Positions 18,042-55,100 of a DNA stretch of 64,000 nt are shown piece by piece. The stretch is from Eledone cirrhosa (lineage: Eukaryota). Numbering within the stretch: position 1 is the first letter of the stretch; every line of letters starts with the position of its first letter. Below the pieces are notes generated by a model. It had not been told where the DNA came from, ran no database searches, and worked only from the letters and a program-made list of their open reading frames with translations. Both the position numbers and the translations under genes were made by a program. The DNA is taken from NCBI GenBank assembly GCA_964016885.1, contig OZ024743.1, forward strand, positions 272,490,001 to 272,554,000, written 5' to 3'.

Positions 18042-18228
18042 GGGCGGTGGATTGGCAGTATCGGTAGAGGGTCGAACGCCATGCTTTGACGCATAGAGTT
18101 ACGGCCCTTGCCATTCTGAGTTCAAATCCCGCCAAGGTTAACTTTGCCTTTCATCCTTACGGGGTCGATAAAATAAAATACCAGTAATGCACTGGATAAT
18201 TGCTGGCTTTGTGCCTAACGTAGAAACA
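18042..18228 (+). mobile_element. Main SINE family, full length with ATTATATGAG target-site duplication
   Basis: GGCGGTGGATTGGCAG...GTAGAAACA flanked by ATTATATGAG on both sides. Confidence 0.93.
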
Positions 18229-20148
18229 ATTATATGAGTACACTCACGGACTAACTACCTAGCGAAATGTAATACTAAAAATCTAAGAAGGGCACATTTT
18301 GTGGCCGCAGATTGCCTCACCTCCAACAGTCCCCTTATTTCACGAAAAGTCATCTCCAAGAATCCAGGCATATATACAACGAATTTGACTAACACTACAC
18401 CATGCTAAAACGCAATCGCTTTCAAACAGCCCGGGCAAGGATAAAGAATACTCAGACATAAGCATAAAGAACACATAGACACAAGACGGGCACAAAAATA
18501 ACTATAACATAAATAGCATCGCTGGTCTCTAACTCTATTCCGGTTTGCACACCACCATCAATATGTACAGAGCAGCAGCAACTGTCACGCGCATGTCTAG
18601 TCTACCTGACTCTACTCTGAACTCCATTAATATTTCTTTTACCATTTAGACAGGGCAGGAAAGTCTACGTACATGAAAGTTTTCAGCATCTCTATGACTA
18701 GACACTGGAAAGTACACAATGTGTCCAAAGTCTTACGCTACACCACATACGATCAGCAATGCATGTAGGAGTGATTATTGTGGTCCTCCACTTGACCGAA
18801 GCAGGGTATAACTGATAAAAATGACAAGTGAATGAGGCGTCATCGTGCCGATGTTATTCTACATGCCATATAACTGCTCAATTAGGGCTGACAGGGAGCA
18901 ACATACAATAATAACAAGGACTGATTCTGAACAACAACAACGAATTCAATAATAACAAGGACTGACTCATCGCCTCATAGATAAAGATGCCAAAACACAT
19001 TTGCACCAACCAACCTGGTTGAAAGGGAAGTATTAACGGATTATCTCTATAAAGTGTTCTAGTGCATTAAATGATGGATTCATCATGTAGCGCCTCACTG
19101 TTTACGGTTTTCACAGCAGAATTTTACCCACAGCAAGGAAGAGAATATAAACAGACTATACAGTGAAAGGCCGAAGCAGTTAGAATCGATGAATATTGCT
19201 GTTGTTATGGTGAAGAAGTTATTATCGTAACCAGATAGCTTTGAATCCAATAGCACAACACGATATCTACGGAAATTGTTTACTATAGGGGAAGTTTGTG
19301 GTATATAAACGGAAATGTGTATGCGAATGCGTGTGTATATGTGTGTGACGTTCGCTTATATATATAGTAATGGGAAAGCAAAACAAGAAAGATATTGGGC
19401 CTTTATGAATGAACATCCATGTGGTATTTATTCTACGTTAATTATAAGCGCTCTTGTCACTCACGCTGTGAGAATTACAATGAAACAGCGATTGGTCTGT
19501 TGGAAACCTGTAAACAACGATGTATGTTTCACAAATTGCGATATAAAATAAATGAATAAACAAGTATTGTTTTACTATATTTATCACAAATGTGACGACA
19601 GCGATGACTAATGTCAACGATGTCAATGACTTACCATCCCAAACATCGATATTTTAGTAATTTTAGTGCTTCATTGTCGATGATATTTCCGTTGAACGTA
19701 TTAATTTTCTCGCTAAACTGTTTCCATTTCAATTGGATTATGGGATTGATATTCAAGCGTGACTTGTTTCATACTCAAAATGGTTGCCTCAAGTTGTGAC
19801 CGTATAATCAGCATAACTGTCTTTAATCATAGCGTTTGTCAAGAAAGAGGACGAGAAAAATAGAATGTATCGTATCGGTAAGCATTCTAAGATGAACTTT
19901 GAATCAACAGTACTAAGGTAGAAATATCAATTGTAAAAAGGTCAAGATGCAGGAGAGAATGTCACCAAACACACAGAGTGTTTATTAGACCAAAGGGGAA
20001 AATTATTCAAATATCTATAACGGGTGGTAAACATTTCACATGGCTATCAGGAACATTTCGGAAAGTATTTGAATGACGTCATTAATATATTTGTGTATAA
20101 CGTTGAAATCTATACTGTAATACCAATGAAAATATGATTTTTATTTAT

Positions 20149-20333
20149 CGGTGGATTGGCAGTATCGGTAGAGAGTCGGACAACATTCTTTGCAGCATAG
20201 TTACGGTCCTTTATGATCTGAGTTCAAATCCCGCCGAGGTTAACTTTACCTTTCATCCTTACGGGGTCGATAAAATAAAGTACCAGTAATGCACTGGGTA
20301 ATTGCTGGTCTTGTGCCAAAAGTAGAAATAATT
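20149..20333 (+). mobile_element. Main SINE family copy
   Basis: Same A box, B box, core and tail. Confidence 0.92.
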
Positions 20334-20454
20334 ATTTATTTATAGGGTTATTGTGCAGTTTTCTACATTTGAATATTTTCTAAAGGGGATAATATATTGT
20401 TAAGCAAAACGACTTTGTAGATTTTTTTTATTATATGATATAACTGTTAAGTAG

Positions 20455-23578: not shown

Positions 23579-23787
23579 CGGTTTCAACACACGTTTTCAG
23601 ATAAAGAATCTTGCTAAACAAATTCAGAAAAGAAATATATATATATATAAGCAAAAGGGATATTCAATTTGTTGGTAATTCAACAAATATAAATGTTTAT
23701 AACTGATTCAGAGCACTCGACAAGTTTTCTGGAGTATAATATTCAATGATATTAAATAAATGGAAACTATATTTATAAAACCATATT

Positions 23788-23848
23788 TATTCTATTATAT
23801 ATATTTCAAGGGTACCAAAACTTTGGTACGCTTTCATCAGATAAAATA
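23788..23848 (-). ncRNA. Minimal type-I hammerhead ribozyme (inverted copy)
   Basis: Minus strand: TATTTTAT-CTGATGA-AAGCGTACCAA agtt TTGGTACCCTT-GAAA-TATATA-TA-ATAGAATA. Confidence 0.8.
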
Positions 23849-25102
23849 CAAAGTTTGTTTTATAAATTTTGACATAACCAAGAAAAAGATACCTTACCGA
23901 TTCACGTTTTCCTTGGATAGTGAAGGGATAAAAGAGGAAAAGTCAGATATTTTTAAGATGAGTATGCAAATGAGGTTGAGGTATAGGTCTGAAAAGAACG
24001 TTATTTTAGACGCTATGTAGAATTTAAATAATTAGGATATAATCTTTAATTGACATTCTGAAAATTTATCCTCTTTACGATAGTTCTTCGAAATGCACAT
24101 TACGTTTTTCCTCTCCTTTTGATCTTCAAACTTTCACACATCTTTCGACTAAAATAGTTAATTTCACACGAGATAATATATAATTGTTTCTATATAAACG
24201 GAAAAAATGAAACGAAATTTCATTTCTCACTCTTAGGACGGCTATGTGTGTACGTATACATACTTATATTTCTCTATATATTTTCTGAGTAAATCATTCA
24301 TCAAATTTAACGGTTAACAAACAAGATTGGAGTTATCTCTCCATGTTCAATCGTGCAAACATAAACATTATAATATAATATGTACGATAAACTATATAAC
24401 TTCGCTAAATTAACAACATTCTGAAAACATTTTCAATGTTAGAACAAAATATTCGAATCTACCAATTGTTCTCCTCTTACAACTTGAACCACCTGTTGTT
24501 TATGTAAAATGCAAAATTATATTTATGTATGAGTAGGAAGAAGAAAAAAAGGAAGAAGAGCTTGTATTTACGTTAATTTAAAAGGAATTAACAATATGAT
24601 TCCTTCGTAACTCATATTAGAAATGTAAACAACTAATAATTGTAAATTATTTCTATTTCTATAATACACAATTATTAATCTATATAGATATTTATATACT
24701 TATAACCTATTGTAATGTAATAATATATAATATACTTACAACCATAATTCTTCATATAATCTAATGGATTATATATACAATATTATAACTCATAATATAG
24801 CTAAATAAATTTAAATTCTGGAATCATATTGTTAATTCCTTTTAAATTAACGTAAATACAAGCTCTTCTTACTTTTTTTCTTCTTCCTACTCATACATAA
24901 ATATATCCCAATTATTTAAATTCAGCATAGCGTCTAAAATAAAGTTTTTTTTCAGCCCTATACCTCAACCTCATTTGCATACTCATCTTAATAATTTGAA
25001 ATATCTGACTTCTTTTCTCTTATCCCTTCACTATCCAAGGAAAATTTGAACCGTTAAGGTATCCTTTTCTTGGTTATGTCAAAATTTATAAAACAAACTT
25101 TG

Positions 25103-25163
25103 TATTTTATCTGATGAAAGCGTACCAAGGATTTGGTACCCTTGAAATATATATAATAGAATA
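25103..25163 (+). ncRNA. Minimal type-I hammerhead ribozyme
   Basis: TATTTTAT-CTGATGA-AAGCGTACCAA ggat TTGGTACCCTT-GAAA-TATATA-TA-ATAGAATA; palindromic stem III region. Confidence 0.85.
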
Positions 25164-25206
25164 AATATGGTTTTATAAATATAGTTCCCATTTATTTAAT
25201 ATCATA

Positions 25207-25253
<47 letters not shown>

Positions 25254-25262
<9 letters not shown>

Positions 25263-25625
25263 GTACATACACATATGTATACAGACGTACAGTAGTATGC
25301 ATATATATATACATACATGCACACATATATATATATATGCACGTATGGTTTCACCGAACATTTATTATAATGCTCGGTGTGTTTGTAAACAAACATCCCG
25401 TATTAAGCCGGATACGGCTTAATACGGGATGTTTGTTTACAAACACACCGAGCATTATAATAAATGTTCGGTGAAACCATACGTGCATATATATATATGT
25501 GTGCATGTATGTATATATGCATACTACTGTACGTCTGTATACATATGTGTATGTACGTGTACATACTTATATTTAAGTAACAGCCGTACTAAGAGTGGGA
25601 AATGAAATTTCGTTTCATTTTTTCC

Positions 25626-25628
<3 letters not shown>
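25254..25628. repeat. Near-perfect palindrome (arms about 25254-25410 / 25415-25565, 4-nt loop GATA) made of the ribozyme-tail family, between two (TA)n tracts
   Basis: ...CATCCCGTATTAAGCCG gata CGGCTTAATACGGGATG...; sequence homologous to 36728-36945. Confidence 0.95.
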
Positions 25629-25666
<38 letters not shown>

Positions 25667-30198: not shown

Positions 30199-33053
30199 TA
30201 TCAGGTATTTATGTTGTAATCTATTATAACATTTTAGTTTTATCTATTATATATTTATAGATGTTTGTATGTCTCACTCGTAATGCATCTTCCCCTGCTC
30301 ATCACCACACTTTCATCTGTCCTCCGTCTTTATTGTGCATGTGGCAATCGTCCTCTTATTCTTGTATGTAGCTATTACCAACCTCTACACTACCACCATA
30401 GTCTTGTTTTACTACTCTAACCCTTATAGACATTAATTTCAATACAATCTCTTCCATTTACAGCCTCCACTGCCTTTTATTTTGTATCTTTTCCTCTCAA
30501 TTTCTATTACTGCCTCAACCTCCTACTTTTCAGTTCATATATTACTATATTCCGCAATCCTCCCCCGCTCATAAATATATATATGCATAGATATATACAC
30601 ACACACATACATACATTCATGCATACATACATACATACATACATACATACATACATACATGCATACATACATACTTACATACATACACTCACACACATAA
30701 TCACTTTGTTGAGCCGGGGCTATAGTAAAATACATTTTCCCAAGGAGCTGCTTTTTAGGGTTGAAATCGGAACCACGTGGATGCTGAGAGATGTTAATTA
30801 ATATGAGGCTATGTCTGTACAAAAATTGGTTGGGGAATATGTTAGGAGATCTAGGAAAAGCGAATTACCCATTCCAACATAAAAGTTTGTAAGGCGGCTT
30901 CGATTAATTTCTGATGATTTAGTTAGAAGCGAATAAGAAATATATTCTTTCAGAATTGATCGAATATGTTGATTCCTTTTACAATAGCTCACTAAATAAA
31001 CAAAAGTCCATTTCACAGGAATTCTTCGTTTATTACACAAGCGGAAGAGGTTTTTAGAGCAAAGAATTTTTAAGGTGGTGATGGAGATGGTTGAAAATAC
31101 TTTACAGCTTGCCATTTCTTCTTCCTTTGTTTTTGAGTTTAACAAAGTAGGATCCTTAGGTTATCGGAATGTTATAAATTGTAGACCAGTGTATGATGCG
31201 TTTTTTAAAGAATATTTCAGTAAGACAAAAAAGAAAAGAAAATGTGAGTGTGTGTATGTGTGTGTGGTGATGGTAGTGATGGAAGAGAATTGGTTCAATT
31301 GCCTAAATGCAAAGGAATAAGTAATATCATACAAACATATAAAAATGTTTTAGTTGGGTGGAAACGGTATATGACAATACCACATCTATCTTCACCGGTT
31401 TCTGTGGCGGGCGGGGTTTCTCAACAAATGTTGCACACAGCCTCCTTCTCAGTCCGAATCATTAAAATATATAGCAAAATGCACGAATTTAATCATTCTA
31501 GCGTGTATGATAAAGTATAATCAGCGTGTAATTTGAATTTTATTAGTCCAGGGTGGATAGAAGGATACAAAAATATACCGATTCCAGTCCAACCGACAGT
31601 ACCATCTCTCTTGTAAATATTAATTCTATCTCAAGTCGAAAGAGATTGATAGTTCAACGATATTGGAAAAGCAACTCTAATCCATCTCTACTCGTAAATA
31701 GCATTATTCCCCCAAGACATATTTCTAAACAAATTTTAAAGAACAATGACATCACTTCTTTTATTAAGTATTCTGCGCCAAAGGATAAAAAGGGGGGTAA
31801 TTTCCTTGTTGTGGTAATTGTTATTAAAATTTATTTTCTTTTTCCAACGGAACACGTTTGTGTTTTATAATTTTGTATGTTTTTAAACAAGCTTCTCTGC
31901 TTCCTTTTAAAAATCGTAATGTCATCCATATTACAATTTTCATTTAATCCATTCCATTTTTCGATATTTGGAAATAGCATATTTTACTCGTATAAATAAA
32001 TAATATTTTAATTCACAAATTTGAAGATTCAGTTATTGAGTTATGTCAGCACTAAAATATTTAGCGCTATAAACCGTGATCTAGAGACAAGTGGGTGTCT
32101 TGATATGGTTATGGACTGCTAGCCAGTGTTTATAGCCAATACACTTCATACACAAAGTCCCAGAACACAGGATTAAAATAACCGGATGATTGTTTCATGT
32201 TTCCTACAGCATATGTTTGTTACAGTATATATTTTAAATTGTTTGTTCGTAATGGGCAAACAGATGGAAGAATTACCTAGTATGAAATTTGAATTAAAAC
32301 ACGAATGCAGGGATATTATTGCATTAGATAAAAAAGGAAAAATCTACGAAGTTGTTATGTTCATGCGTATAAATTTCTATTCATAACTTGAATGTGGTGA
32401 AAATATTCCTGCAAAGAGCTGATTTTAGTGTGTTGACTCTATTCACTGTTTGATTACCCTTTACTTGCCGCTGTAGTCACAATGACCTGGAAATATCGAT
32501 TTCTTGCACAAGCATTAAAGCTAAATTAAAGACACCATTTGAAAATAATAATATAACTACTGCCGAATAAAACACTCGAACTGTAGGAATTCATGTCAAA
32601 CGTTATAAAATCATATAACCATTAGAAGGTACCAGAAACTCTTATATCACGTAAATAAAATGTCACAAGTCCCAAGATTTTAGTAATAAATGAAGCAATG
32701 AAATAAAAGGCAACATTTGAGGTTTTTAGTCTTAATATAAATCAGACATTCTTTTAAAGCAAACCAGCAATGGAATCTCTATGTGCTCATTTGGCATGCG
32801 ATAAATAAGAGCTAAATTTCGATTATGCCATATAAAAACAGTCTTAAAACTGAGACGTGAAACTACATTAGATAATAATTCATTCGATACATGTTGCCTG
32901 AAATTTAAAAGAATTATAGGATGGCCATGGTTGGAATGCATTTGATGATAAGTCTGCTTAATCGGGGCCAATCTAGAGTTAAATAACAAAACTCCAATAT
33001 AATGCGATTATTGGATGTCCATTTTTCTCAACAATGTTATTGATAATAATAAT

Positions 33054-33269
33054 GCTTTCTGATATAGGCACAAGGCCAGTAATTTGGGGGAGGGGGAAGT
33101 CGATTAAATCGACCCCAGTATGTCACTGGTACTTTATTTTATCGACCCCGGGAGGATGAAAGGCAAAGATAACCTCGGCGGGATTTGAACTCAGACCGTA
33201 TAGAACCGTAACTCTATGCTGCAAAGCATGGTGTCCGACTCTCTACCGATACTGCCAATCCACCGCCCT
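33054..33269 (-). mobile_element. Main SINE family, longer variant, with TTATTGATAATAATAAT target-site duplication
   Basis: Full SINE plus extra GTCGATTAAATCGAC hairpin segment; duplicated flanks at about 33037-33053 and 33270-33286. Confidence 0.92.
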
Positions 33270-34159
33270 TTATTGATAATAATAATAATACTAAATATTT
33301 ATTACAAGAAATTGAAAGTGGATTAGAAATTCGAAACGATTAGGGAATCTATAACACTCAATGCCCTCGGATTTACATTTATGGCTGAATTAGATTACAT
33401 CAAGTTATGAAGGTTAGCGAAATTGCTGGAAACGAGATTTCAAATTAGTCTGAGATCTTGTTTGGGAAGAAATATAAAGCTAATCGACATCATTCGCTAT
33501 AGAAATGATAGTAAAGGCTCACTATTAGTTAAGGGAAGAGGGAAATTTATTCTAAGAGTGTCAGGTAAATGTCTAGCGCTATTCGTTCCGATTAAGTAAC
33601 TCCCCGTGTTAAATTCCGCCGAGTCTACTTTAATTTCATCCTTTCGGGTTCAACAAATTACCAGTTCAATACAGTGGAATGATATAATTCTTCGAGGATA
33701 GCTTTAATTATCACGTCTTCGAAGTCCCGCTGGTTCATGGATGGGGTGACTAGAGGATAACTAGATGTCTGCTCATGTGTACATAGACACTCAAAACCCA
33801 AAGGAAAAGAATTATTGGGATCTTAATGTCTTTTACAACAATATCATTGGTTTCTAATTCAGGTACTAGGCTAGCAATTTAGGGTTAGGGAAAATTATTT
33901 AAATTGATGCGACTAACCTAATTCAGTGATACTTTATTTTATCGACACCGTAAGGATGAAAATAAATTTTAACCTTGGTGGCTTTTGAAATGGGAACTCA
34001 CAGGGCATGAACAAATACCGCAAAATATATTGTTCGACGCTCTAATGGTTCTGCCAATCCACAGCCCCAGCTATTAATGAAGAAAGTGAAGTAGGAAAAA
34101 TATGATATGGTACCCGACTTTCGTGAAAACTGTATCTTAACTCTTAGCGCTTATAATAT

Positions 34160-34385
34160 TAGTTAAGCAAAATATTGATTACCTTTGGTAAGAATTCCTG
34201 CTAAACATATATTTGTAAATGGACGTAGTAATCCAGCAGTGATTCCTAGTTGAAGGTACTACGTGAAATTAAATGGCTAAGAGTAGTACCTTCAACTAGG
34301 AATCACTTCTGGATTACTACGTCCATTTACAAATATATGTTTAGCAGGAATTCTTACCAAAGGTAATCAATATTTTGCTTAACTA
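34160..34385. repeat. Inverted duplication, 103-bp arms, 20-nt spacer, followed by (TA)n
   Basis: 34160-34262 is the reverse complement of 34283-34385 with one mismatch. Confidence 0.95.
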
Positions 34386-34404
34386 TATATATATATATAG
34401 ATAT

Positions 34405-35190: not shown

Positions 35191-35204
35191 ATAGTTCACC
35201 ATAC

Positions 35205-35242
35205 CGAGAACAATAGTTTCACCTTAGCTGATCCTCAGCTCG
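35205..35242 (-). ncRNA. Minimal hammerhead ribozyme (PLE tail, left arm; stem II mismatch)
   Basis: Minus strand: CGAG-CTGAGGA-tcagctaaggt-GAAA-CtattG-TT-CTCG. Confidence 0.65.
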
Positions 35243-36598
35243 TAATGGAATGGTTATACGGAACAGGAAGGACAACCGTACGAACGCGCATGCGCAGAAA
35301 TCGGTCACTTCACACTGGCAATACTAAAATGCGTGCGAGAGGTGTAAGGAAGATATCTGCGAAAGTCCGAAAGTTTCTAGTTGATAAGAAAATTATGATG
35401 TTGTAATTCAAACCGGAGCTTTGTAGTTATGCAAGAGGTGTTTCGAGACGTGTGAACAACGTGTGAAGAATTCATTTCTCGTGTTTAGGCAATCACTATT
35501 GCATAATCTCTTTAGAATATTTATTCGTTCCTCAATACATAGTCCACACGACGGATTTCCCCTTGCGTATGGTTTGAACTTAGTGATGGCTTTCCATTGA
35601 ATGGAGTAGTCTATACTTGAGTCCTTGGGGGACCATACGTCGCTCGCGAGTTTCGTGGATGAACGTCTGTCCGGGTACCTAATGTTCGACTGGTGGTTCA
35701 GGAAACGTTCCTTAAATCGGCCCTCCGCCATACCCACATAGGATTTGACCTGTGGTTGATTTGCTCGGTTGGAAGTGACCACAGCTTCATAAATTACAGC
35801 GGGTGTGTTGCATTGCTGTTGAAGGGGACAAGCTTCGGGCTTACGGCAAGAGCACCTTGGTGGGGTGTTGCTTCTAAGGCTGCTGGTGATGTGGGCCTTC
35901 ATGTTCTTAGCACAGAAGTATCCTAGTTTTACTTTGTGTCGGTTAAAGATGGAACGGTATTTATGACCTATGGGAAAGTGTCTATCTAAGAGAGCTACAA
36001 ATATTTTGCCTACATTGGTTTTAACGTTGAGTGAGAAGGAAGAAGAGAACCAGATAGTTTGTCTATTGTTACGCTTTATTTTCTTATTGCTGTTGTTGAT
36101 AGTGGGTATGGCGGAGTGCCGATTTAAGGAACGTTTTCTGAACCACCAGTAGACTTTTAGGTACCCGGACAGACGTTCATCCACGAAACTCGCGAGTCAT
36201 GTATGATCCCTCAAGGACTCAAGTATAGACTACTCCATTCAATGGAAAGCCATCACTAAGTCAAATCCATACGCTAGAGGAAATCCGTCGTGTGGACTAT
36301 GTATTGATGAACGAATAAATATTTTAAAGAGATTATGCAATATTCATTGCCTACACGAGAAATGAATTCTTCACACGTTGTCCACACGTCTCGAAACACC
36401 TCTTCCATAACTACAAAGCTCCGGATTGAATTAAAACAACATCATAATTTTCTTAACAACTAGAAACTTTTCGGACTTTCGCAGTTATCTCCCTTATACT
36501 TCTCACACGCATTTAATATTGCCTGTGTGAAGAGACCGGTTTCTGCGCATGCGCGTTCGTACGGTTGTCCTTCCTGTTCCGTATAACCATGTCCATTA

Positions 36599-36636
36599 CG
36601 AGCTGAGGATCCGCTAAGGTGAAACTATTGTTCTCG
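36599..36636 (+). ncRNA. Minimal hammerhead ribozyme (PLE tail, right arm)
   Basis: CGAG-CTGAGGA-tCCgctaaGGt-GAAA-CtattG-TT-CTCG; stem I can extend via ACCAT/ATGGT. Confidence 0.75.
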
Positions 36637-36665
36637 GTATGGTGAACTAACTGTTGTGTAACCAC

Positions 36666-36727
<62 letters not shown>

Positions 36728-36730
<3 letters not shown>

Positions 36731-37585
36731 GGAAAAAATAAAATTTCATTTCTCACTCTTAGTACGGCTCATACTTACATATAAGCATGTATACGTAATA
36801 CATATATGTATACAGACGTACAGTAGTATGTATATACATACATACATGCACACATATATATATATATATATATATGTACGTATGGGTTTACCGAACATTT
36901 ATTATAATGCTCGGTTTGTTTGTAAACAAACAGCCCGAATTATTAGCCGTACAGTGTCCGGCAACCATCGTTGCCATTTTGTTCAACACTGACAAAGGAA
37001 CGATGAACTAGTTTCTAGCCTATTAGCTGTCATCAGCACCGTATACCTTCCTGTCAGTCAATTGAACGTTTGAAAGTATATACTTTCCTTATGCATATTA
37101 ACGGCTGAGCAGCCTAACTTGCATATCGAGTGAGTTAGACGGCCGGGCGTACCGAAAACGATAAATGTAAAAAATGAAATTTCATTTCTCACTCTTAGTA
37201 CGGCTGATACTTAAATATAAGTATGTATACGTACATGCATATATGTATACAGACGTCAGTAGAATGTATATATATATACATACATGCACACACACATATA
37301 TATACGTATGGGTTTACCGAACATTTATTATAATGCTCGGTTTGTTTGTAAACAGACAGCCCGAATTCGTCTGTATACATATATGTATGTACGTATACAT
37401 ACTTATAATTAAGTATCAGCCGTACTAATAGTGAGAAATGAAATTTTATATTTTCCCTTTATCGTTTTCGGTATATGCACATATATGTACCCATACGTAC
37501 ATATATATATATATATGTGTGTGCATGTATGTATGTATATACATACTAATGTACGTCTGTATACATATATGTATGTACGTATACT
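36728..37585. mobile_element. ORF-less hammerhead-plus-tail element with tandem and inverted tail copies
   Basis: Minus unit 37150->36728 containing a hammerhead; second minus tail 37149-37366; plus tail 37368-37473; partial 37490-37585; homologous tails at 24197, 25254-25628 and 41349. Confidence 0.8.
37000..37042 (-). ncRNA. Minimal type-I hammerhead ribozyme with palindromic stem III
   Basis: Minus strand: ACGGTG-CTGATGA-cAGCtaatagGCTa-GAAA-CtaG-TT-CATCGT; AACTAGTT is self-complementary. Confidence 0.8.
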
Positions 37586-39445: not shown

Positions 39446-41316
39446 CTTCAATTATGTAACATTGCCAAATATGCGCTTCGATTAAATAGTCCACTTTGAA
39501 CTATCTGGGTGGTAGACTAAATCCATCGTCCATGTTAGCATTGCCATGTAGGTCTTGGTTGTATTTAGTGAGGAGCACTATGCTGTAAGCAGTCGGGTCA
39601 AGGTTAGATGGGGGTCCATCTTCCTGTCTCTCACATGTCTCAGAAGCACCGAGAAGGATTATAGGCTCCGTCCTTCCGTTGCTGATTAAACAATGTATAC
39701 AACATCCTAGTGTCAATTAAAGAGAACAAAAAACAAAAAAAGAAGCATGAGATTGACTGAGAAAGATACTTTCACCGAGACTCTCAATCACTACTACTCA
39801 AGCATACTGATTCGTCACTATCTCTTAAACTGATATTATAATGGCTTATACAACTTTCCGAACTACTAAAGTACACACAATTACCTCTAAATCTCATCCG
39901 GTGGGCTTGCCTTTTGTTTTCTTACTGCATCTCTTCACCACCCTAAAACGTACACCAAATATTTTACCCAAGCTTGCCGCTTCATATCTCCAGCTTCCTG
40001 GAATTACATCCCAGCCGACATTTTTCACACAACCATCAACCGAAAGTAGTTAGACATCAACTGCTTTGACACCACCATTTTGAAACAAGCTTCAATGCTC
40101 ACTAGTGCTTCCTCTTTGTACTTCGATTAAGTACGTTTCTTGTTTTATGCTTAGATAAAAATATTCTCAAATCCTTGATAAGCGGAATATTCATTGCAAA
40201 GATGCAGAGATGCTACAAATTTTGTAATGTGAAAGGCACTATTGATTAGACATTGAAGTATCAGAAATATAGTATTATTTTTGTAGATATTCCGGTTTAC
40301 AACTGCCTAGGCTTACAAACTCTGACAATGTTGCAACACATAGGAGATTTCTTGAGTGTTTTGATGTTGAGGGCCTCAAATGTATGAAATATATCAAACA
40401 ATCCCATCAATCCACATCCGTGGACTACTACTTTTTATACCCTGAAAGAATGAAGATAAAAATTGACTTCGGTTGGATATAAAATATATGAACAGATAAC
40501 CAAAACGATACAGCACACTTAATACGATCTAGCTACTTCGCCAATTCGCCGATCAGTAATTTATTTTGATCGATTGAATTGATTATCGCCACTCTGTCTT
40601 TCTCCTTTGTAAGAACCAAATGATAATTCATTTACATACCAGACGCACGTCAAACGCACTCTCACACACGTATTCCCCAATATCTGAATGTGACAGCTAA
40701 TTAGGAGAGAGACAGTCAAGTATATTGACTTTCAGAAAAAAGCTACAAAGAAACACATATAATTACTTTGACTATAGTCAAGTTGAGTATTCAGGTAAGT
40801 GTGAGTTGAAAGAGACGAAACTGCATTGATTGATTTTTAATTAAGGACAAACTTAAGATAGCAGCACAAAACCATTAATATAATTCTTTCGTGCGTGTGA
40901 AAATATGTCACAATTTCTTTCTTACAAAATCTCATCTATCATTATCATTATAATCATTACTATTATTTTTTATCATCCTTGATATTATTATATTCTTTTA
41001 TCTCAGAAGATTCACGAACTTTCACTTTATCTGACGTGTTTTTTCTTTAATCATATATTTACTTATTTATTCATTTATTTATTTATTTTTGCAATTATTG
41101 GCAATCAGTTTATTATTTGTCTTTAAAGTGTGTTGCTGGAAAATACGTTTTCCCTTAGTCTGGTTTAAATTGTATTACGACACATCTGTGAAATATGATA
41201 AATGTAGTATATCCAATAACATAGTGATAGTCTATTATGCACATGTTGAATTCTGATCTCTAAATCATACATTGCTCCCCCCCCCCATATATATATATAT
41301 TGTTTTGGAAATGATA

Positions 41317-41352
<36 letters not shown>

Positions 41353-43002
41353 GGAAAAAATGAAACGAAATTTCATTTCCCACTCTTAGTACGGCTGTTA
41401 CTTAAATATAAGTATGTATATATATATGATATCTCACACATATATATATATATATATATCACCACCCCACTCTCAAGAGCGTGAAACTAATAAACCTTTG
41501 TTCGTACTGCCTCTCTGTTTTGTTCCCGTTCAATTTTTTTACTATATATATATATATATATGCAGGAACACACACACACGCACACACACGCACACACACA
41601 CACACATGTGCACGAGACTGGTATCTTTATCGTTGCTCCTCAGAATTTATGTCATACACATTTTCCCATTAAACGAAGACCGTTCTGAGTTGGACATATT
41701 TAAAATATTCAAGATGGAGTTGCTACGTATCTATTTCATTGCCTATTACAGGTGACTTACCTTTGATACATAGATTTATTAGGAGAACTGCTCACTACAA
41801 TAGCTTGTGCCTTTAAAAGTTATTTTCCTTTTTTGTAAAATTGAAATTTTTATTTCAAGTTTTCATTCCTGTAGTTATAAATTCAAATTTTATTGATTTT
41901 GTATCGAGTTTGCATTTTACTGATATTTCTAGATTGCATTTTCTTTGCAAGCATGATAAAACCTCATCTTCCCAGTTCAGATTCAGTTAGTATTCTAAAC
42001 CTCTCAGTTATAGATAAATTACATTTTCTGCTACGTCGGTTGTATTGTTTAACTTTCTCAGCAGTAGACATTCTACAATTATTTAGATACGATGGGCTCA
42101 GATTCTTCAGTTACGATAAAAACAGAACTAAATAACCACATCCAACTGAATGCCACGGAATTACTATCGCTCCGACGTGACTGAATATGACTGCATAAAG
42201 ACGAATTAAGATCAACAGTTGATGCAGAAAAGGTATATACCAGGTTAACAAGAACCAGCTCAAAATCTGACATACACAGCATTGTATTTCATTAAACATA
42301 AAAGAAAATTCAACTTTATTTCGTAACCACGGTATGTATAGCATCGAAAAGACAGATGTGAAATCTTCTCAATATAATACTGCGAAAGCTAAACTATACA
42401 GCCTACCTCACAATTGATACAATTTATACTAACTGCACCTATCAATAATCTGAGTAGAAGAGACGAAACCTTTTTCTTAGAACGGAAGAAAAATATGTTT
42501 TGAACCTTTTAATAATATCTCTATGCTAGTTTCACTTCACTTAGAAATCAAATGAATGAAGAAAGGTCAAACTGCAAATTTCGTCAAAAACCAATAACAA
42601 ATAAGAATAAATCTTTTTGATGGATATCGAAATAGCCGTAGAATTATTTTCCTGGGGGATTCTAAACAACATATATTACGATAAATTTCCAGTATTGAAT
42701 TCATGTACCGAAGCTATACTAGCGGGCATAGATTTCAGACGTAAACACTCTTCCATGTTTGATGAAATATGTATAATCTAAAACTTAGAATATCAATCTA
42801 AAAAACACCGACCATGTAGGTTAGCTAACTCATATAATCAACTATTGAGTACTGTCTTCTTTTTCGCGAAACAAAATCCTATATATATAGTAATAATAAT
42901 AAATGTGAAGACTAAAATCTAAAGAGTTTCAGAAGATCCCGTTAAGGGTGAAAGCAGCGATTCTTTCCTTAAACTTTAATGTTATTTTAATATATATATA
43001 TT

Positions 43003-44472
43003 AAAAGCAATGAGAATTTTATTCAAAATTAGTAGTAAATTGAGTTCGATGACCTTATTTGGAGTTAGCTGAAGAACAAACCAATCAGATTGTTTTTTCC
43101 CCCATATGATGTTAAGATGAATAAGAAGTCACTTTAGTTGAGGTCATGGCCCTTTGAAAGGAATGGTTGAATGGTGTTAACAATAGAATTGCTATAAAGA
43201 ATCTATGAGGAAAAAGAGGATTGTCATATTGATAGTTGCCGCACACTCTAGTAGTTTTAACAATACTAAACTAGCTAACACCACATTTTTAGCTGAAGCA
43301 GTAAATAACTATAAAAAGAAAAAAATAGATTTCAAAAGGACGATTTATTGAATAAAAGACAGGAACTGATTATAGTTTGTAATCACCGTATACGAAAAAC
43401 ATTTAAATACTATAAACCTAATTAAATATTCTAAATAGCAACTCACTATAATTCTGTGTAGCGTAACATGTGTTAGTTTCCCTTGCCCCTAATTATACGC
43501 ATTCATGCTTATTTCTTACCTTTTAATTCTTTAGCTTCCTTAGGTTTATGTGTTAATGACTAAAGGCATCAAAGTACACAACCACCCGTAATTGCATGAG
43601 TAAATATGTATCTATGTATGTATGATATGAGAATATATATATATATGTGTATATATGTGTATATGCGTGTATATGTGTATGAGTGTTTATGTGTGTGTGT
43701 ACATGTATGTGTATATACACATATATATATATATATATATATGTCTGTATAGGTGTGTATATGTATATATGTATATATATATATATATGTATATAATTGT
43801 GTGCACATGTGTAGATGTATGTATATGTTTACATCTATTTATGCGTATGTATGTTTTTTATTGAGTATCAATATAACTATACCTCTATCTATAATGTGGG
43901 TATATGCACTTTGTGATCTATGAAATTTATGCGTTTTGACAATGTCAACATGCATTTATCTGAGTTTGATTATTTCTACATGGACATACTTGAAAGTATA
44001 TTAAGTTGTATCATACGCTGTATTATACTATGCACAATGTATCACACCGTACTATATTGTGTTATATTATATTATATTATTGTATTACTATATTTCATTA
44101 TCTTATTATAATTTTCATCTTTTAATATACTATCTTTCCTGGTCATGACCATAATTTATATTCACCTAAAAACTCCATACAATACAACTCAATATTTAAT
44201 TTTTACATTCCTTTTAAACTTCACTATACCATATACATTCAACTATCAATATGACAATCCCCTTTTTCCTCAGATTATTTATAGCAATTCTATTGTTAAC
44301 ACCATTCAACCATTCCTTTCAAAGGGTCATGACCTCAACTAAGTGACTTATTTTTCATCTTAACATCAAATGCGGAAAAAAACAATCTGATTGGTTTGTT
44401 CTTCTGCTACCTCCAAATAAGGTCATATAACTCAATTTACTACTAATTTTGAATAAAATTCTCATTACTTTT
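43003..44472. repeat. Inverted duplication, about 235-bp arms (43003-43238 / 44240-44472), 1-kb spacer, (TA)n at the left end
   Basis: Reverse-complement match with scattered mismatches. Confidence 0.92.
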
Positions 44473-45299: not shown

Positions 45300-45512
45300 C
45301 GGTGGATTGGAAGTATAGATAGAGCGTCGGACAACATGCTTTGCGGAATATAGTTACGGCCCTTGGTGTTCTGATTTCAAATCCCACCAAGGTTAGCTTT
45401 GCCTTTCATCCTTGTGGAGTCGATAAAATAAAGTACCAGTAATGCACTGGGATCGATATAATCGACTTCCCTCCCATTAAATTGTTGGCTTTGTGCCTAA
45501 ATTCGAAACCAT
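45300..45512 (+). mobile_element. Main SINE family, longer variant
   Basis: GGTGGATTGG...GCCTTTCATCCTTGTGGAGTCGATAAAATAAAGTACCAG...GGCTTTGTGCCTAAATTCGAAAC. Confidence 0.9.
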
Positions 45513-46104
45513 TATCAACACTCTTCTGTTTAAGGATAACGATAATGGTGAAGTACCAAACAGAAAATTCCGGGTATCCGGACCCACATATTAGCATTGC
45601 GTTTTCAAACTGGCAACTGAACACAACACACCAATATAATATATATACGTATAATAAGAGCTTACTTTCTATATAATTATTTGAGAAATATTTACTGAAA
45701 ATAAGATACAAACCTCTAAAACTAAACATTACTCATCTATTGTGGCTGTAGCCGACTCTTCCTTTTGAAAACGTAGCAATATTCAAAAGTAAATACCACT
45801 AGTTAAGTTCAGGTTGTTCTAAATCAGTACCATGAACAGTTCCTCTCTTACTCTCTTCTCCTTTCTCTCTAACTCTCTCCCGCTGCTCTCTCACATACAA
45901 TTGCAAAGAGCATAAGTATTATTCAATCAGTGGGTGTTTCTTTAGCTTGCACTAATGTATACTGATATACTGATCTAGTGAATGAAAAGGGGAAGTTGCT
46001 TTAGATGTTTCGGATTTGGACTCTGCTTCTGAATACGAACTAGAGATAATATCTGGCTTGTTACCGATAATCAGTTTTACTGAGACTATTCAACGCCAGT
46101 ATTC

Positions 46105-49100
46105 CATCATCACGACGATGACAACAATCAACAGGACGGCAAGCACGTGGATAACTACGACGACATCAAGCACGAAAACAACCACGACCATCACAACAAC
46201 TAAAAGAAACAGGATCTTCACAACAACTAAAACAACCACAACCATAATAACAACTAAAACAACAAGACCATTACAAGAACTAAAACAACCACGACCATCA
46301 TAACTAAAACAACCACGACCATCACAGCTAAAACAACCACGACTATCACAACAACTAAAACAACAAGACCATCACAACTAAAACAACAACGACCATCACA
46401 ACAATTAAAACAAACACGACCATCACAACTAAAACAACCACGACCATCAGAGCTAAAACAACGTCGATCATCACAACAACTAAAACAACCACGACCATCA
46501 CAACAACTAAAACAACCACGACATCCACAACAACTAAAACAACCACAATCATCACAACAACTAAAACAACCACGACCATCACAACAACTAAAACAACCAC
46601 GGTCTCCACAACAACTAAAACAACCACGACCATTACAACAACTAAAACAACCACGACCATCACAACAACTAAATCAACCACCAACATCAAAACAAATAAA
46701 ACAACTACGACCATCACAACTAAAATAAACACGGCATCACAACAACTAAAACAACACGACCTCCACAACAACTAAAACAACCACGACCATCACAACAACT
46801 AAAACAACCACGACCATCACAACAACTAAAACAACCACGACTATCACAACAACTAAAACAACACGAGCATCACAACTAAAACAACCACGATCATCACAAC
46901 AACTTAAACAACCACGACCATCACAACAACTAAAACAACCTCGACCATCACAAAAACTAAAGCAACCACGACCATCACAACTAAAGCAACCACGACAATT
47001 ACAGTTAAAACAACCACGACCATCACAACAACTAAAACAACCACTACCATCACAACAACTAAAACAACCACGACCATCACAACAACTAAAAGAACAACGA
47101 CCATCACAACAACTAAAACGACCAGGACCATCACGACAACTAAAACAACCACGACCATCACAGCAACTAAAGCAACGACAACCATCACAACAACTAAAAC
47201 AAGCACGACCATCACAACAACTAAAACAATCACGACCATCACAACAACTAAAACAACCACGACCATCACAAATAAAACAACCCGACCATCACAACAACTA
47301 AAACAACCACGACCATCATAACAACTAAAACAACACGACCATCACAACAACTAAAACAACACGACCATCACAACAACTAAAACAACCACGACCATTACAA
47401 CAACTAAAACAACACGAACATCACAACTAAAACAACCACGACCATCACAACAATTAAAACAACCACGACTATCACAATAATTAAACAACACGACCATCAC
47501 AACAACTAAAACCACCACCACCATCACAACCACAAAAACAACCACGACCATCGCAACAACAAGAACAACCACGACCATCACAACTAAAACAACCACGATC
47601 ATCACAACAACTAAAATAACCAGGACCGCCACAACAACCAAAACAACACGACCATCTCAACAACTAAAACAACCACAACCATCACAACACTAAAACAACA
47701 CGACCAACACAAATAAAACAAAATCGACCATCACAACTAAAACAACACGACCATCACAACAACTAAAAGAACCACCACCATCACAACAACTAAAACAACC
47801 ACGACCATCATAACAACTAAAACAACACGACCATCACAACAACTAAAACAACACGACCATCACAACAACTAAAACAACCACGACCATTACAACAACTAAA
47901 ACAAAACGAACATCACAACTAAAACAAACACGACCATCACAGCAATTAAAACAACCACGACCATCACAATAATTAAACAACACGACCATGAACAACAACT
48001 AAAACCACCACCACCATCACAACCACTAAAACAAACACGACCATCGCAACAACTAAAACAACCACGACCATCAAAACTAAAACAACCACGACCACCACAA
48101 CAACTAAAATAACCAGGACCACCACAACAACTAAAACAACACGACCATATCAACAACTAAAACCACCACGACCATCACAACACTAAAACAACACGACCAA
48201 CACAACTAAAACAACCACGACCTTCACAACTAAAACAACACGACCATCACAACAACTAAAACAAGCACGACCATCAAAATAACTAAAACAATCACGACCA
48301 TCACAACAACTAAAACAACCACGACCATCACAACTAAAACAACCACGACCATCACAAATAAAACAACCCGACCATCACAACAACTAAAACAACCACGACC
48401 ATCATAACAACTAAAATAACCAGGACCACCACAACAACTAAAACAACACGACCATCTCAACAACTAAAACAACCACAACCACCACAACAACTAAAACGAA
48501 CAGGACCATCACGACAACTAAAACAACGACGACCATCACAGCAACTAAAACAACGACAAACATCACGACAACTAAAACAAGCACGACCATCACAACAACT
48601 AAAACAATCACGACCATCACAACAACTAAAACAACCACGACCATCACAAATAAAACAACCCGACCTTCACAACTAAAACAACCACGACCTTCACAACTAA
48701 AACAACACGACCATCACAACAACTAAAACGACCAGGACCATCACGACAAATAAAAGAACCACGACCATCACAGCAACTAAAACAAACACGACCATCACAG
48801 CAAATAAAACAACCACGACCATCACAATAACTAAAACAAGCACGACCATCACAACAACTAAAACAATCACGACCATCACAACAACTAAAACAACCACGAC
48901 CATCACAACAACTAAAACAACCACGACCATCACAAATAAAACAACCCGACCATCACAACAACTAAAACAACCACGATCATCATGACAACTAAAACAACAC
49001 GACCATCACAACAATTAAAACAACACGACCATCACAACAACTAAAACAACCACGACCATTACAACAACTAAAACAACACGAACATCACAACTAAAACAAA

Positions 49101-52100
49101 CACGACCATCACAGCAATTAAAACAACCACGACCATCACAATAATTAAACAACACGACCATCACAACAACTAAAACCACCACCACCATCACAACCACTAA
49201 AACAAACACGACCATCGCAAGAACTAAAACAACCACGACCATCACAACTAAAACATCCACGACCACCACAACAACTAAAATAACCATGACCACCACAACA
49301 ACTAAAACAACACGACCATCTCAACAACTAAAACCACCACGACCATCACGACTAAAACAACACGACCATCACAACACTAAAACAACACGACCAACACAAC
49401 TAAAACAACCACGACCTTCACAACTAAAACAACACGACCATCACAACAACTAAAACAACCACGACCATCACGACTAAAACAACACGACCATTACAACAAC
49501 TAAAACAACTACGCCCTCCACAACAATTAAAACAACCACGACCATCACAACAATTAAAAGAACCACGATAATCACAACCATTAAAACAATCACGACCTCC
49601 AAAACAATTAAAACAACCACGACCATCACAGCAACTAAAACAACCACGACCATCAAAACTAAAATAACCACGACCATCACAGCGAAAACAAACACGGCAT
49701 CACAACACCTAAAACAACCACGATCTCCACAACAACTAAAACAACCACGACCATTACAACAACTAAAACAACCACGAACATCACAACAACTAAAACAACC
49801 ACGAATATCACAACAAATAAAACAACTACGACCATCACAACTAAAACAACCACGGCATCACAACAACTAAAACAACACGACCTCCACAACAACTAAAACA
49901 ACCACGACCATCACAACAACTAAAACAACCACGACCATAACAACAACTAAAACAACTACGACTATCACAACTAAAATAACCAGGGCATCACAACAACTAA
50001 AACAACACGACCTCCACAACAACTAAAACAACCACGACCATCACAACAACTAAAAAAACCACGACCATCACAACAACTAAAATAACCAGGACCACCACAA
50101 CAACTAAAACAACACGACCATCTCAACAACTAAAACAACCACAACCACCACAACAACTAAAACGAACAGGACCATCACGACAACTAAAACAACGACGACC
50201 ATCACAGCAACTAAAACAACGACAAACATCACGACAACTAAAACAAGCACGACCATCACAACAACTAAAACAATCACGACCATCACAACAACTAAAACAA
50301 CCACGACCATCACAAATAAAACAACCCGACCTTCACAACTAAAACAACCACGACCTTCACAACTAAAACAACACGACCATCACAACAACTAAAACGACCA
50401 GGACCATCACGACAAATAAAAGAACCACGACCATCACAGCAACTAAAACAAACACGACCATCACAGCAAATAAAACAACCACGACCATCACAATAACTAA
50501 AACAAGCACGACCATCACAACAACTAAAACAATCACGACCATCACAACAACTAAAACAACCACGACCATCACAACAACTAAAACAACCACGACCATCACA
50601 AATAAAACAACCCGACCATCACAACAACTAAAACAACCACGATCATCATAACAACTAAAACAACACGACCATCACAACAATTAAAACAACACGACCATCA
50701 CAACAACTAAAACAACCACGACCATTACAACAACTAAAACAACACGAACATCACAACTAAAACAAACACGACCATCACAGCAATTAAAACAACCACGACC
50801 ATCACAATAATTAAACAACACGACCATCACAACAACTAAAACCACCACCACCATCACAACCACTAAAACAAACACGACCATCGCAAGAACTAAAACAACC
50901 ACGACCATCACAACTAAAACATCCACGACCACCACAACAACTAAAATAACCATGACCACCACAACAACTAAAACAACACGACCATCTCAACAACTAAAAC
51001 CACCACGACCATCACGACTAAAACAACACGACCATCACAACAACTAAAACAACCACGACCATCACGACTAAAACAACACGACCATTACAACAACTAAAAC
51101 AACTACGCCCTCCACAACAATTAAAACAACCACGACCATCACAACAATTAAAAGAACCACGATAATCACAACCATTAAAACAATCACGACCTCCAAAACA
51201 ATTAAAACAACCACGACCATCACAGCAACTAAAACAACCACGACCATCAAAACTAAAATAACCACGACCATCACAGCGAAAACAAACACGGCATCACAAC
51301 ACCTAAAACAACCACGATCTCCACAACAACTAAAACAACCACGACCATTACAACAACTAAAACAACCACGAACATCACAACAACTAAAACAACCACGAAT
51401 AACACAACAAATAAAACAACTACGACCATCACAACTAAAACAACCACGGCATCACAACAACTAAAACAACACGACCTCCACAACAACTAAAACAACCACG
51501 ACCATCACAACAACTAAAACAACCACGACCATAACAACAACTAAAACAACTACGACTATCACAACTAAAATAACCAGGGCATCACAACAACTAAAACAAC
51601 ACGACCTCCACAACAACTAAAACAACCACGACCATCACAACAACTAAAACAACCACGACCATCACAACAACTTAAACAACCACGACCATCACAACAACTA
51701 AAACAACCACGACCATCAAAATTAAAGCAAACTCGACAATCACAGCTAAAACAACCACGACCATCACAACAACTAAAACAACCACGACCATCACAACAAC
51801 TAAAACAACCACGACCTTCACAACAAGTAAAACAACCACGACCATCACAAATAAAACAACCCGACCTTCACAACTAAAACAACCACGACCTTCACAACTA
51901 AAACAACCACGACCATCACGACTAAAAAACACGACCATCACAACCACTAAAAAAGCCACCACGATCACAACCACTAAAACAACCACGACCATCACAACAA
52001 CTAAAACAACCTCGACCATCACAACACCTAAAACAACCACGACCATCACAACTAAAGCAACCACGACAATCACAGCTAAAACAACCACGACCATCACAAC

Positions 52101-55100
52101 AACTAAAACAACCACGACCATCACAACAACTAAAACAACCACGACCATCACAACAACTAAAAGAACAACGACCATCACAACAACTACAACGACCAGGACC
52201 ATCACGACCACTAAAACAACCACGACCATCACAGCAACTAAAACAACGACAACCATCACAACAACTAAAACAAGCACGACCATCACAACAACTAAAACAA
52301 TCACGACCATCACAACAACTAAAACAACCACGACCATCACAAATAAAACAACCCGACCATCACAACAACTAAAACAACCACGACCATCATAACAACTAAA
52401 ACAACACGACCATCACAACAACTAAAACAACACGACCATCACAACAACTAAAACAACCACGACCATTACAACAACTAAAACAACACGAACATCACAACTA
52501 AAACAACCACGACCATCACAACAATTAAAACAACCACGACCATCACAATAATTAAACAACACGACCATCACAACAACTAAAACCACCTCCACCATCACAA
52601 CCACTAAAACAACCACGACCATCGCAACAACTAAAACAACCACGACCATCACAACTAAAACAACCACGACCATCACAATAACTAAAATAACCAGGACCAC
52701 CACAACAACTAAAACAACACGACCATCCCAACAACTAAAACAACCACAACCATCACAACACTAAAACAACACGACCAACACAAATAAAACAACCACGACC
52801 ATCACAACTAAAACAACACGACCATCACAACAACTAAAAGAACCACGACCATCACAACAACTAAAACAACCACGACCATCATAACAACTAAAACAACACG
52901 AGCATCACAACAACTAAAACAACACGATCATCACAACAACTAAAACATCCACGACCATTACAACAACTAAAACAACACGAACATCACAACTAAAACAAAC
53001 ACGACCATCACAGCAATTAAAACAACCACGACCATCACAATAATTAAACAACACGACCATCACAACAACTAAAACCACCACCACCATCACAACCACTTAA
53101 ATAAACACGACCATCGCAACAACTAAAACAACCACGACCATCACAACTAAAACAACCACGACCACCACAACAACTAAAATAACCAGGACCACCACAACAA
53201 CTAAAACAACACGACCATCTCAACAACTAAAACCACCACAACCATCACAACACTAAAACAACACGACCAACACAACTAAAACAACCACGACCTTCACAAC
53301 TAAAACAACATGAACATCACAACAACTAAAACAAGCACGACCATCACAATAACTAAAACAATCACGACCATCACAACAACTAAAACAATAACGACCATCA
53401 CAACTAAAACAACCACGACCATCACAACAACTAAAAGAATCACGACCATCACAGCAACTAAAACAACCACGACCATCACAGCAAATAAAACACCCACGAC
53501 CATCACAACAACTAAAATAACACGACCATCACAACAACTAAAAGAACAACGACCATCACAACAACTAAAACGACCAGGACCATCACGACAACTAAAAGAA
53601 CCACGACCATCCCAGCAACTAAAACAACCACGACCATCACAGCAAATAAAACAAGCACGACCATCACAATAACTAAAACAAGCACGACCATCACAACAAC
53701 TAAAACAATCACGACCATCACAACAACTAAAACAACCACGACCATCACAACAACTAAAACAACCACGATCATCATAACAACTAAAACAACACGACCATCA
53801 CAACAACTAAAACAACACCACCATCACAACAACTAAAACAACCACGACCATTACAACAACTAAAACAACACGAACATCACAACTAAAACAAACACGACCA
53901 TCACAGCAATTAAAACAACCACAACCATCACAATAATTAAACAACACGACCATCACAACAACTAAAACCACCACCACCATCACAACCACTAAAACAAACA
54001 CGACCATCGCAAGAACTAAAACAACCACGACCATCACAACTAAAACAACCACGACCACCACAACAACTAAAATAACCAGGACCACCACAACAACTAAAAC
54101 AACACGACCATCTCAACAACTAAAACCACCACGACCATCACAACACTAAAACAACACGACCAACACAACTAAAACAACCACGACCTTCACAACTAAAACA
54201 ACACGACCATCACAACAACTAAAACAACCACGACCATCACGACTAAAACAACACGACCATCACAACAACTAAAACAACCACGCCCTCCACGACAATTAAA
54301 ACAACCACGACCATCACAACAATTAAAAGAACCACGATAATCACAACCATTAAAACAACCACGACCTCCAAAACAACTAAAACAACCACGACCATCACAG
54401 CAACTAAAAAAACCACGACCATCAAAACAAAAACAACCACGACCATCACAGCGAAAGCAAACACGGCATCACAACACCTAAAACAACCACGATCTCCACA
54501 ACAACTAAAACAACCACGACCATTTCAACAACTAAAACAACCACGAACATCACAAAAACTAAAACAACCACGACCATCACTACAAATAGAACAACTACGA
54601 CCATCACAACTAAAACAACCACGGCATCACAACAACTAGAACAACACGACCTCCACAACAACTAAAACAACCACGACCATCACAACAACTAAAACAACCA
54701 CGACCATCACAACAACTAAAACAACTACGACTATCACAACTAAAATAACCAGGGCATCACAACAACTAAAACAACCACGACCATCACAACAACTAAAACA
54801 ACCACGACCATCACAACAACTAAAACAACCACGACCATCACAACTAAAGCAAACTCGACAATCACAGCTAAAACAACCACGACCATCACAACAACTAAAA
54901 CAACAACGACCATCACAACAACTAACACACCACGACCACCACAACAACTAAAACGACAACAATAATCACAAAAACTAAAACAACCACGACCATCACAACA
55001 ACTAAAACAACCACGACCATCACAACTAAAACAACCACGACCATCACAGCAACTAAAAAAACCACGACCATCAAAACAAAAACAACCACGACCATCACAG

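Follow-up and report, generated by a model that had tools for sequence, protein, structure and literature searches.

A non-coding, hammerhead-bearing repeat in a 64,000-nt stretch of the Eledone cirrhosa genome (here called the window) is very probably a non-LTR retrozyme, whose copies were likely made from multi-unit or circular RNA and inserted at TA repeats by a Penelope-like reverse transcriptase/endonuclease that the element borrows. The family is a non-coding repeat with thousands of copies in the 3.0-Gb genome that hosts the window. Genome-wide counts of exact patterns gave 827 hammerhead cores of one subfamily, 3,588 copies of a 22-mer located just 3' of the predicted cleavage site, 6,900 head-to-tail unit junctions, and 4,752 3' ends at unit position 432 running into (AT)n. 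These counts are lower bounds, and controls with reversed patterns returned zero.

A preliminary description of the locus had reported a hammerhead followed by a tail of about 270 nt. We find instead that ribozyme and tail form a single 432-nt unit with no separate tail part; the unit is defined in this way because the sequence 5' of the ribozyme is usually the tail again among the 30 best genomic matches. The unit has a low GC content (37%), is approximately 88–95% identical to its best 29 genomic relatives, and measures about 420 nt in a sister subfamily. It contains no ORF, as had been stated before: the longest stop-free stretch, in an array of 17 units, amounts to 62 amino acids, and no ORF is shared among the flanks. 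Arrays of 6, 17 and at least 21 head-to-tail units exist, none of them with an ORF. After 13 of the 221 loci fetched had been removed for overlap, the arms of the insertions were mapped in the remaining 208, which came from four selections (best BLAST hits, exact core, sister-subfamily tail, and post-cleavage anchor) plus three array stretches; 416 of 427 arms consist of one or two unit pieces.

The copies in the window are listed in Table 1. The segment 36729–37585 is a single insertion composed of a full unit, a partial upstream unit and an inverted arm. The partial upstream unit differs from the main unit at 0 of 6 diagnostic sites and the inverted arm at 0 of 1, and the insertion contains one hammerhead only. 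All five tail copies listed in the preliminary description are present; two of them (37149–37366 and 37368–37473) are parts of the main insertion and not further copies, and those at 25254–25628 and 24197–24270, taken for single tails, are each a two-armed insertion. On both sides of the copy at 41349–41420 stands a direct repeat some 11 nt long (ATGATATCTCA; window positions 41312–41438), a possible target-site duplication.

Table 1. Retrozyme copies and associated features in the window.
Feature	Position	Strand	Basis or remark
Complete 432-nt unit, unit position 1 = 37160	36729–37160	-	3' end ...TTCCAT-TATATA at 432
The family's other preferred 3' end (unit 385, ...CATACTTAT), internal to the first by 47 nt	36776	-	
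Type I hammerhead	37000–37042	-	C3 at 37036; cut predicted just 3' of 37006 (unit 155/156)
Predicted long hairpin, extends stem I past an internal loop	36981–37067	-	fold, z -2.0 for 116-nt stretch
Predicted stem GAGUGAG/CUCACUC across the unit junction, encloses the 432 end	37128–37194	-	only in tandem or circular RNA
5'-truncated upstream tandem unit (unit 220–432), same insertion	37161–37367	-	shared haplotype, 6/6 diagnostic sites
Inverted arm, inner piece (unit 343–432, then 14 nt of next unit)	37368–37473	+	
Inverted arm, outer piece (unit 274 to ~375), few bases short of the 385 site	37489–37585	+	
(TA)30 target tract, tail-to-tail with Penelope-like fragment	36669–36728	.	sequence
Two-armed sister-subfamily insertion: minus arm unit ~212–385, plus arm ~210–432, (TA)n on both sides	25244–25631	.	
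Very short two-armed insertion: minus arm ends at 432, plus arm at 385	24197–24271	.	
Single short 5'-truncated sister-subfamily arm, ends at 432 in (AT)n	41349–41420	-	

The hammerhead of the window copy matches a strict type I descriptor. Stem I has 6 pairs (ACGGUG/CAUCGU, one of them G-U), stem II has 4 pairs (AGCU/GGCU) with a C-A mismatch at 10.1-11.1, and stem III has 2 pairs within the palindrome AACUAGUU; the core consists of CUGAUGA and GAAA, with U16.1 and with U at 37006 as H17. The intact core and the palindromic stem III reported for this site are both present. The helices of 6, 4 and 2 bp with their palindromic loop correspond to the canonical metazoan type I form as given in PMC4209133, and the earlier label "minimal" does not apply. 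The 11 invariant core bases, U16.1-H17, the three helices and the short palindromic helix III of type I hammerheads are all found, but the G10.1-C11.1 closing pair of the metazoan canonical form is missing, and this loss may weaken the predicted cutting. The strict descriptor finds one site only in positions 1–46100 of the window and none in 300 Markov simulations; if 5 of the 6 pairs of stem I are taken as sufficient, 6 of the 300 give a match. Rfam did not score the window hammerhead, and the Rfam matches to microRNAs and snoRNAs, all below their gathering scores, were dismissed as noise from TA/CA repeats. The predicted hammerhead fold of the window copy lies 1 kcal/mol above the minimum free energy (MFE).

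Variation in the ribozyme was surveyed with the post-cleavage 22-mer as anchor: its first 100 matches in the genome were fetched, and the pieces counted came from the 68 newly fetched loci. Because the loci were chosen by an anchor downstream of the core, the resulting count of core conservation is free of selection for the core itself. The 11 core bases are fixed in 99–115 of 104–116 pieces (93–100%), and the common variants are restricted to positions tolerant of change. Position N7 is C in 70 pieces and T in 35, H17 is A in 71, T in 44, C in 1 and G in none, and positions 10.1/11.1 are U-U or C-A in nearly all copies, with the G10.1-C11.1 pair absent. The wobble pair of stem I occurs as G-U, A-U, U-U and U-G, one base of loop II is also among the common variants, and A-U/G-U variation at unit positions 107/169 touches the predicted long stem I hairpin. 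Some individual copies have decayed cores. In an independent run that holds the repeat (X22), the contig variants fall at the same places, with 0 in the core. The preliminary description had treated conservation among the copies as decisive for its reading, and that conservation is borne out: the pattern of variation indicates that the hammerhead is under constraint and is kept across subfamilies. Retention of the core in different subfamilies makes it likely that cutting has a role at one step or another. The palindrome could pair between two molecules, with a predicted duplex energy of -6.6 kcal/mol; this duplex, together with the description of canonical metazoan type I hammerheads as cutting through dimers (PMC4209133), suggests that the ribozyme of this family may also cleave as a dimer.

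The ends of the copies are asymmetric. Excluding 67 internal junctions, the 208 loci contain 354 free 3' ends, with 149 at unit positions 378–391, 135 at 418–432 and 70 elsewhere. The large majority (284 of 354) are therefore located at two preferred sites 47 nt apart, and not at the single fixed end at (TA)n that was first described. A run of AT follows 124 of the 149 ends at 378–391, 94 of the 135 at 418–432, and 5 of the 70 elsewhere. Both preferred ends finish in TTAT, with 3–5 nt in common with the (TA)n target. The 5' ends are ragged and spread over the whole unit. Fixed 3' ends running mostly into (AT)n and ragged 5' ends had been proposed as the mark of retrotransposition, and along with the conserved hammerhead and the absence of an upstream ORF they uphold the reading of the repeat as a non-autonomous retroelement copied from its 3' side. 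Dispersed copies with such signatures of retroposition are also what characterizes retrozymes.

Many insertions have two arms in opposite orientation. A head-to-head junction occurs in 122 of the 208 loci, and the points at which the inverted arms meet are variable. Of the two-armed insertions, 94 have free outer ends; in 62 of these both ends fall on preferred sites, and in 32 at least one end lies away from the two sites. In 52 of the 62, an end at 385 is paired with an end at 432, compared with an expectation of 50% (p = 3 × 10−8); the insertion in the window is scored among the 10 unmixed ones, though its outermost right piece ends near 375. The features of Penelope-like element (PLE) insertions all recur in the family, namely partial tandems, an inverted 5' copy, a tail at one end, and a (TA)n target.

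The many palindromic copies in TA, for example that at 25244–25631, could also be taken for a MITE or a foldback DNA transposon with the tail as its terminal inverted repeats. Elements of this kind have two fixed ends with terminal inverted repeats and a fixed length, and such copies were not found. The inner junctions of the inverted arms are ragged, so that a MITE is in practice ruled out and the earlier proviso that the copies might prove to be one does not hold. Moreover, the two outer ends are offset by 47 nt, an inverted partner is missing for 175 of 420 arms, and head-to-tail multimers with a constrained ribozyme would be unexpected. We regard this interpretation as extremely improbable.

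Beside the retrozyme insertion, and tail-to-tail with it across the (TA)30 tract, lies a two-armed, 5'-truncated fragment of an abundant Penelope-like family (35192–36668). The fragment includes a C-terminal endonuclease frame at 35408–36196 on the minus strand, which from its motifs we take to be of the GIY-YIG type, and an inverted copy; hammerhead-like motifs are located at 36603 (+) and 35238 (-). Longer members of the family have frames of 539–591 amino acids with motifs that presumably belong to a reverse transcriptase. The reverse transcriptase and GIY-YIG labels are based on such motifs, since sequence searches of Pfam and PDB did not recognise the protein. The family yielded 150 scored matches, 85–92% identical apart from the self-match, and before (TA)n its copies end at one of two fixed sites that are separated by about 65 nt; in one copy (L272) the sequence goes on beyond the second site, with no run of (TA)n. 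It thus appears to be an autonomous family with a putative reverse transcriptase and GIY-YIG endonuclease and with two fixed ends. A BLAST comparison of the retrozyme unit with 30 loci of this family found no sequence similarity, and the hammerheads differ too; the neighbouring PLE is therefore a candidate helper and a control for the insertion footprint only.

The preliminary description had offered a retrozyme-like element or a solo PLE terminal repeat as alternatives, and it is the retrozyme that fits. In the other case the unit would be a solo or truncated pseudo-LTR of an autonomous PLE, and the copies would be the 3' ends of 5'-truncated insertions. The PLE-like anatomy of the insertions (as described in PMC8557442) would follow naturally from this arrangement, and the search for an upstream ORF covered 208 of thousands of loci. 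In these loci, however, tblastn and flank comparison revealed no upstream ORF common to the copies; a PLE ORF upstream of long copies, which the preliminary description had suggested looking for, was not found in register, and no ORF with reverse transcriptase and GIY-YIG domains lies between repeats as in an autonomous PLE with pseudo-LTRs. The 124 free 5' flanks share nothing but the unit itself. The unit runs into itself, as the junction count demonstrates 6,900 times, and arms reach at least 21 units without any copy leading to an ORF. No parent PLE with similarity to the unit was found in the 208 loci, in the 30 loci of the neighbouring PLE (which has a different hammerhead), or in the hammerhead inventory. 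A solo pseudo-LTR is consequently an improbable explanation.

Some copies of the retrozyme are organized in long arrays. Two such arrays (L211 and L212) are located at G000:C4:189896000-189908000, L212 having higher-order periods; a stretch at G000:C1:51772400-51791300 (L254 and L255) holds more than 40 units; and 17 units with 99.6% identity occur at G000:C2:276044100-276051100 (L213). Periodic shared variants in the long arrays L212, L213 and L252 indicate later expansion at the DNA level, pointing to the birth of a satellite from a retrozyme. One could extend this view to the whole family and regard it as satellite DNA spread at the DNA level, either through unequal exchange or as extrachromosomal circles of DNA, the hammerhead being an inherited relic. 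The higher-order periods of these three arrays would agree with such a history, but the polarity of the copies (fixed 3' and ragged 5' ends), the paired ends and the (AT)n junctions would be left unexplained, and nearly all arms are one or two unit pieces. We consider DNA-level spread of the whole family very improbable. In a separate instance, two distinct two-armed insertions at locus L266 (G000:C1:19618500-19625500) both occur twice in a stretch of 7 kb, which is probably the result of a local segmental duplication.

The relationships among units within an insertion bear on the RNA from which a retrozyme of this kind would have been copied. Between tandem units of the same arm, 119 of 1,101 diagnostic sites (10.8%) are mismatched, and between the two arms of one insertion 128 of 1,250 (10.2%); for random pairs between loci the figure is 7,860 of 18,365 (42.8%). 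The units and arms of an insertion thus mostly share a haplotype, as expected if each insertion was copied from one template. Locus L253 has 4 + 5 almost identical units in two arms, which end at 385 and 432, and L259 has 3 and 8 units in its two arms. Out of 100 anchored copies, 57 end at unit positions 1–150 and 43 continue into the upstream unit. There is no pile-up of 5' ends at the cleavage site: none of the 100 copies begins at unit position 156, which argues that cut linear monomers are not the main template.

This leaves a ligated circle or an uncut linear multimer. We lean slightly towards the circle. The uncut template, a linear read-through transcript of tandem copies with the hammerhead taking no part in insertion and no circular intermediates, has a chance somewhat short of even, provided that the retrozyme explanation itself is correct. 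Read-through of the cleavage site fits it equally well, uncut RNA is reported as the main substrate of the Penelope protein in vitro (PMC11167929), and potential donors are present in the form of homogeneous arrays (L213). In addition, unit types are mixed inside single arms of L257 and L258, and about 6% of pairs differ in subfamily, with mismatches at 30% or more of the diagnostic sites (tandem pairs, 5 of 79; arm pairs, 5 of 89); such mixtures and divergent pairs are not expected from a single monomer circle. On the other hand, homogeneous units are the rule in multi-unit arms, while those of the largest array that was measured are mixed (L212, mean identity 91.5%), and the retention of the hammerhead core across subfamilies suggests that cutting is of use at some stage. 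A single master dimer as the source was also considered and rejected: it should produce systematic differences between upstream and downstream units, and none were found beyond CpG sites and a repetitive stretch.

The predicted fold of the RNA offers further information on the start of copying. A stem that exists only across the unit junction encloses the DNA end at 432, which implies that the RNA extends past this end and that priming is internal. The stem covaries in 33 matched junctions, with GAGTGAG/CTCACTC in 25, GAGTGGG/CCCACTC in 7 and a wobble in 1. It is part of the MFE structure both of the window unit folded as a circle and of the natural L253 junction; the MFE structure of the 115-nt linear junction piece from the window does not include it. 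Folded as a circle, the unit has z scores of -7.9 and -7.7 relative to 40 shuffles, values inflated by its TA/CA-rich middle. The fixed DNA ends are thus probably internal start sites of reverse transcription and not the 3' terminus of the RNA.

Two other potential traces of the RNA were examined. Marks of RNA editing seemed to appear at first as an excess of A>G changes (27 of 158 shared variants compared with 113 of 1,480 private ones), but this excess vanished after variants specific to subfamilies were removed (3 of 20 compared with 108 of 1,001, p = 0.47), and editing was rejected for this sample. Seven putative RNA runs of uncertain species origin, taken from 21 runs annotated as RNA or guessed to be RNA (word shares 0.03–0.07), gave 0 matching contigs, which is no proof that the family is silent.

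These observations lead us to propose the following sequence of events. Tandem copies would be transcribed, and the hammerheads would cut as dimers, after which monomers may be ligated into circles. A Penelope-like protein, probably a dimer, would nick both strands of a (TA)n tract, and two cDNAs would begin at the two internal RNA sites, 385 and 432. Each cDNA would run back over unit junctions and the cleavage site, and the two 5' ends of the insertion would then be joined head to head. Some insertions would later expand into satellite arrays by duplication at the DNA level. In its most specific form, to which we give an even chance, the hypothesis sees in the insertions the genomic trace of an RNA circle that the ribozyme has made and that a Penelope-type dimer has reverse-transcribed in rolling-circle fashion. 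This dimer would prime both strands of the cut (TA)n from two fixed internal sites, of which one would lie within a three-way junction formed only where two units meet, and the PLE tail and the PLE inverted repeat would be two faces of one twin-priming event. If this is true, the 420-nt RNA represents a minimal substrate for reconstituting PLE integration.

The family has the sequence features that define non-LTR retrozymes: a type I hammerhead per unit, head-to-tail units with at least two hammerheads, no coding capacity and no LTR. The animal retrozymes described in PMC7229834 and 10.64898/2026.07.22.740005 likewise consist of a non-coding tandem unit with one type I hammerhead, have low GC content, form monomers, dimers and multimers, co-occur with PLEs and reach thousands of copies, and for the axolotl HHR_Amex2 the base of stem II is likewise reported to have a U-U mismatch (PMC7229834). 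The unit of 420–432 nt is slightly longer than the 170–400 nt given in PMC7229834 and lies within the 51–972 bp of 10.64898/2026.07.22.740005. Unlike those retrozymes, the present family consists mostly of dispersed one- to two-unit insertions; transcription, cleavage and circles are shown for the retrozymes of these two papers. Both propose retrozymes as dependants of PLEs, and in both the spread of animal retrozymes as RNA circles copied by Penelope-like enzymes is put forward as a proposal and not as a demonstration. A two-armed anatomy with one start site per arm was not found stated for retrozymes in the sections consulted of these two papers.

For PLEs themselves, tandem copies that are partial, copies in inverted orientation and a tail confined to one end are described in PMC8557442, where the origin of tandem and inverted ends is still called open; in PMC11167929 both strands are reported to be cut and extended from two internal start sites, to which the one-end tail is tied. 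The likeness to endonuclease-positive (EN+) PLEs (PMC8557442, PMC11167929, PMC4209133) is extensive and includes partial tandems, 5' truncation, an inverted 5' copy, an optional one-end tail, two internal start sites, (TA)n targets, and a hammerhead upstream of the 3' ends. The present family differs from EN+ PLEs in having no ORF and in the spacing of its ends, 47 nt compared with tails of 30–40 bp. PLE hammerheads are of the minimal form (PMC4209133), whereas here the helix sizes are canonical, without the G10.1-C11.1 pair. The start site of Poseidon PAc is reported as non-homologous (PMC11167929), in contrast to the 3–5 nt of TA microhomology with the target found here. Non-autonomous elements of the Chlamys clade such as MRC1 (PMC8557442) are also PLE dependants with multicopy head-to-tail insertions, but at the 3' end they are similar to the autonomous partner, and no partner with such similarity was found for the present family; the Chlamys clade moreover mostly lacks hammerheads, whereas this family carries one per unit.

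The element class is already published, and the family is undescribed in the literature searched: no description of this 420–432 nt family was found there, with Repbase, Dfam and subscription papers outside the search. As a discovery it is modest. Its value could lie in the testable numbers that it offers, with two start sites 47 nt apart, one per arm, in a short structured RNA, and in its company with an autonomous PLE with two fixed ends in the same genome.

Other repeats were noticed as well. A second, unrelated hammerhead-like family forms two opposed arms in the window at 23735–24041 and 24902–25217, with CTGATGA at 25111 (+) and 23840 (-), a long stem II and a TA-palindromic stem III; its end sequence adjoins (TA)n in loci L004, L019 and L232. 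At least five further type I hammerhead-like families are present in the fetched loci L242, L161, L225, L229, L068 and L142. Additional long inverted repeats in the window (249–421, 4401–4559, 4575–5095, 24518–24905, 34152–34395 and 43003–44472) are possibly two-armed insertions of other families or MITEs. A dispersed repeat of 130–200 bp, probably SINE-like, has about 10 copies that are 80–94% identical, at 3762–3891, 5612–5706, 7566–7975, 9562–9764, 14342–14555, 18041–18235, 20149–20344, 33045–33269 and 45300–45515. Finally, about 18 kb at 46104–64000 consist of a 27-bp tandem repeat with 9-bp subunits and approximately 85% identity, open to the end of the window, which could be a satellite or a low-complexity coding exon.
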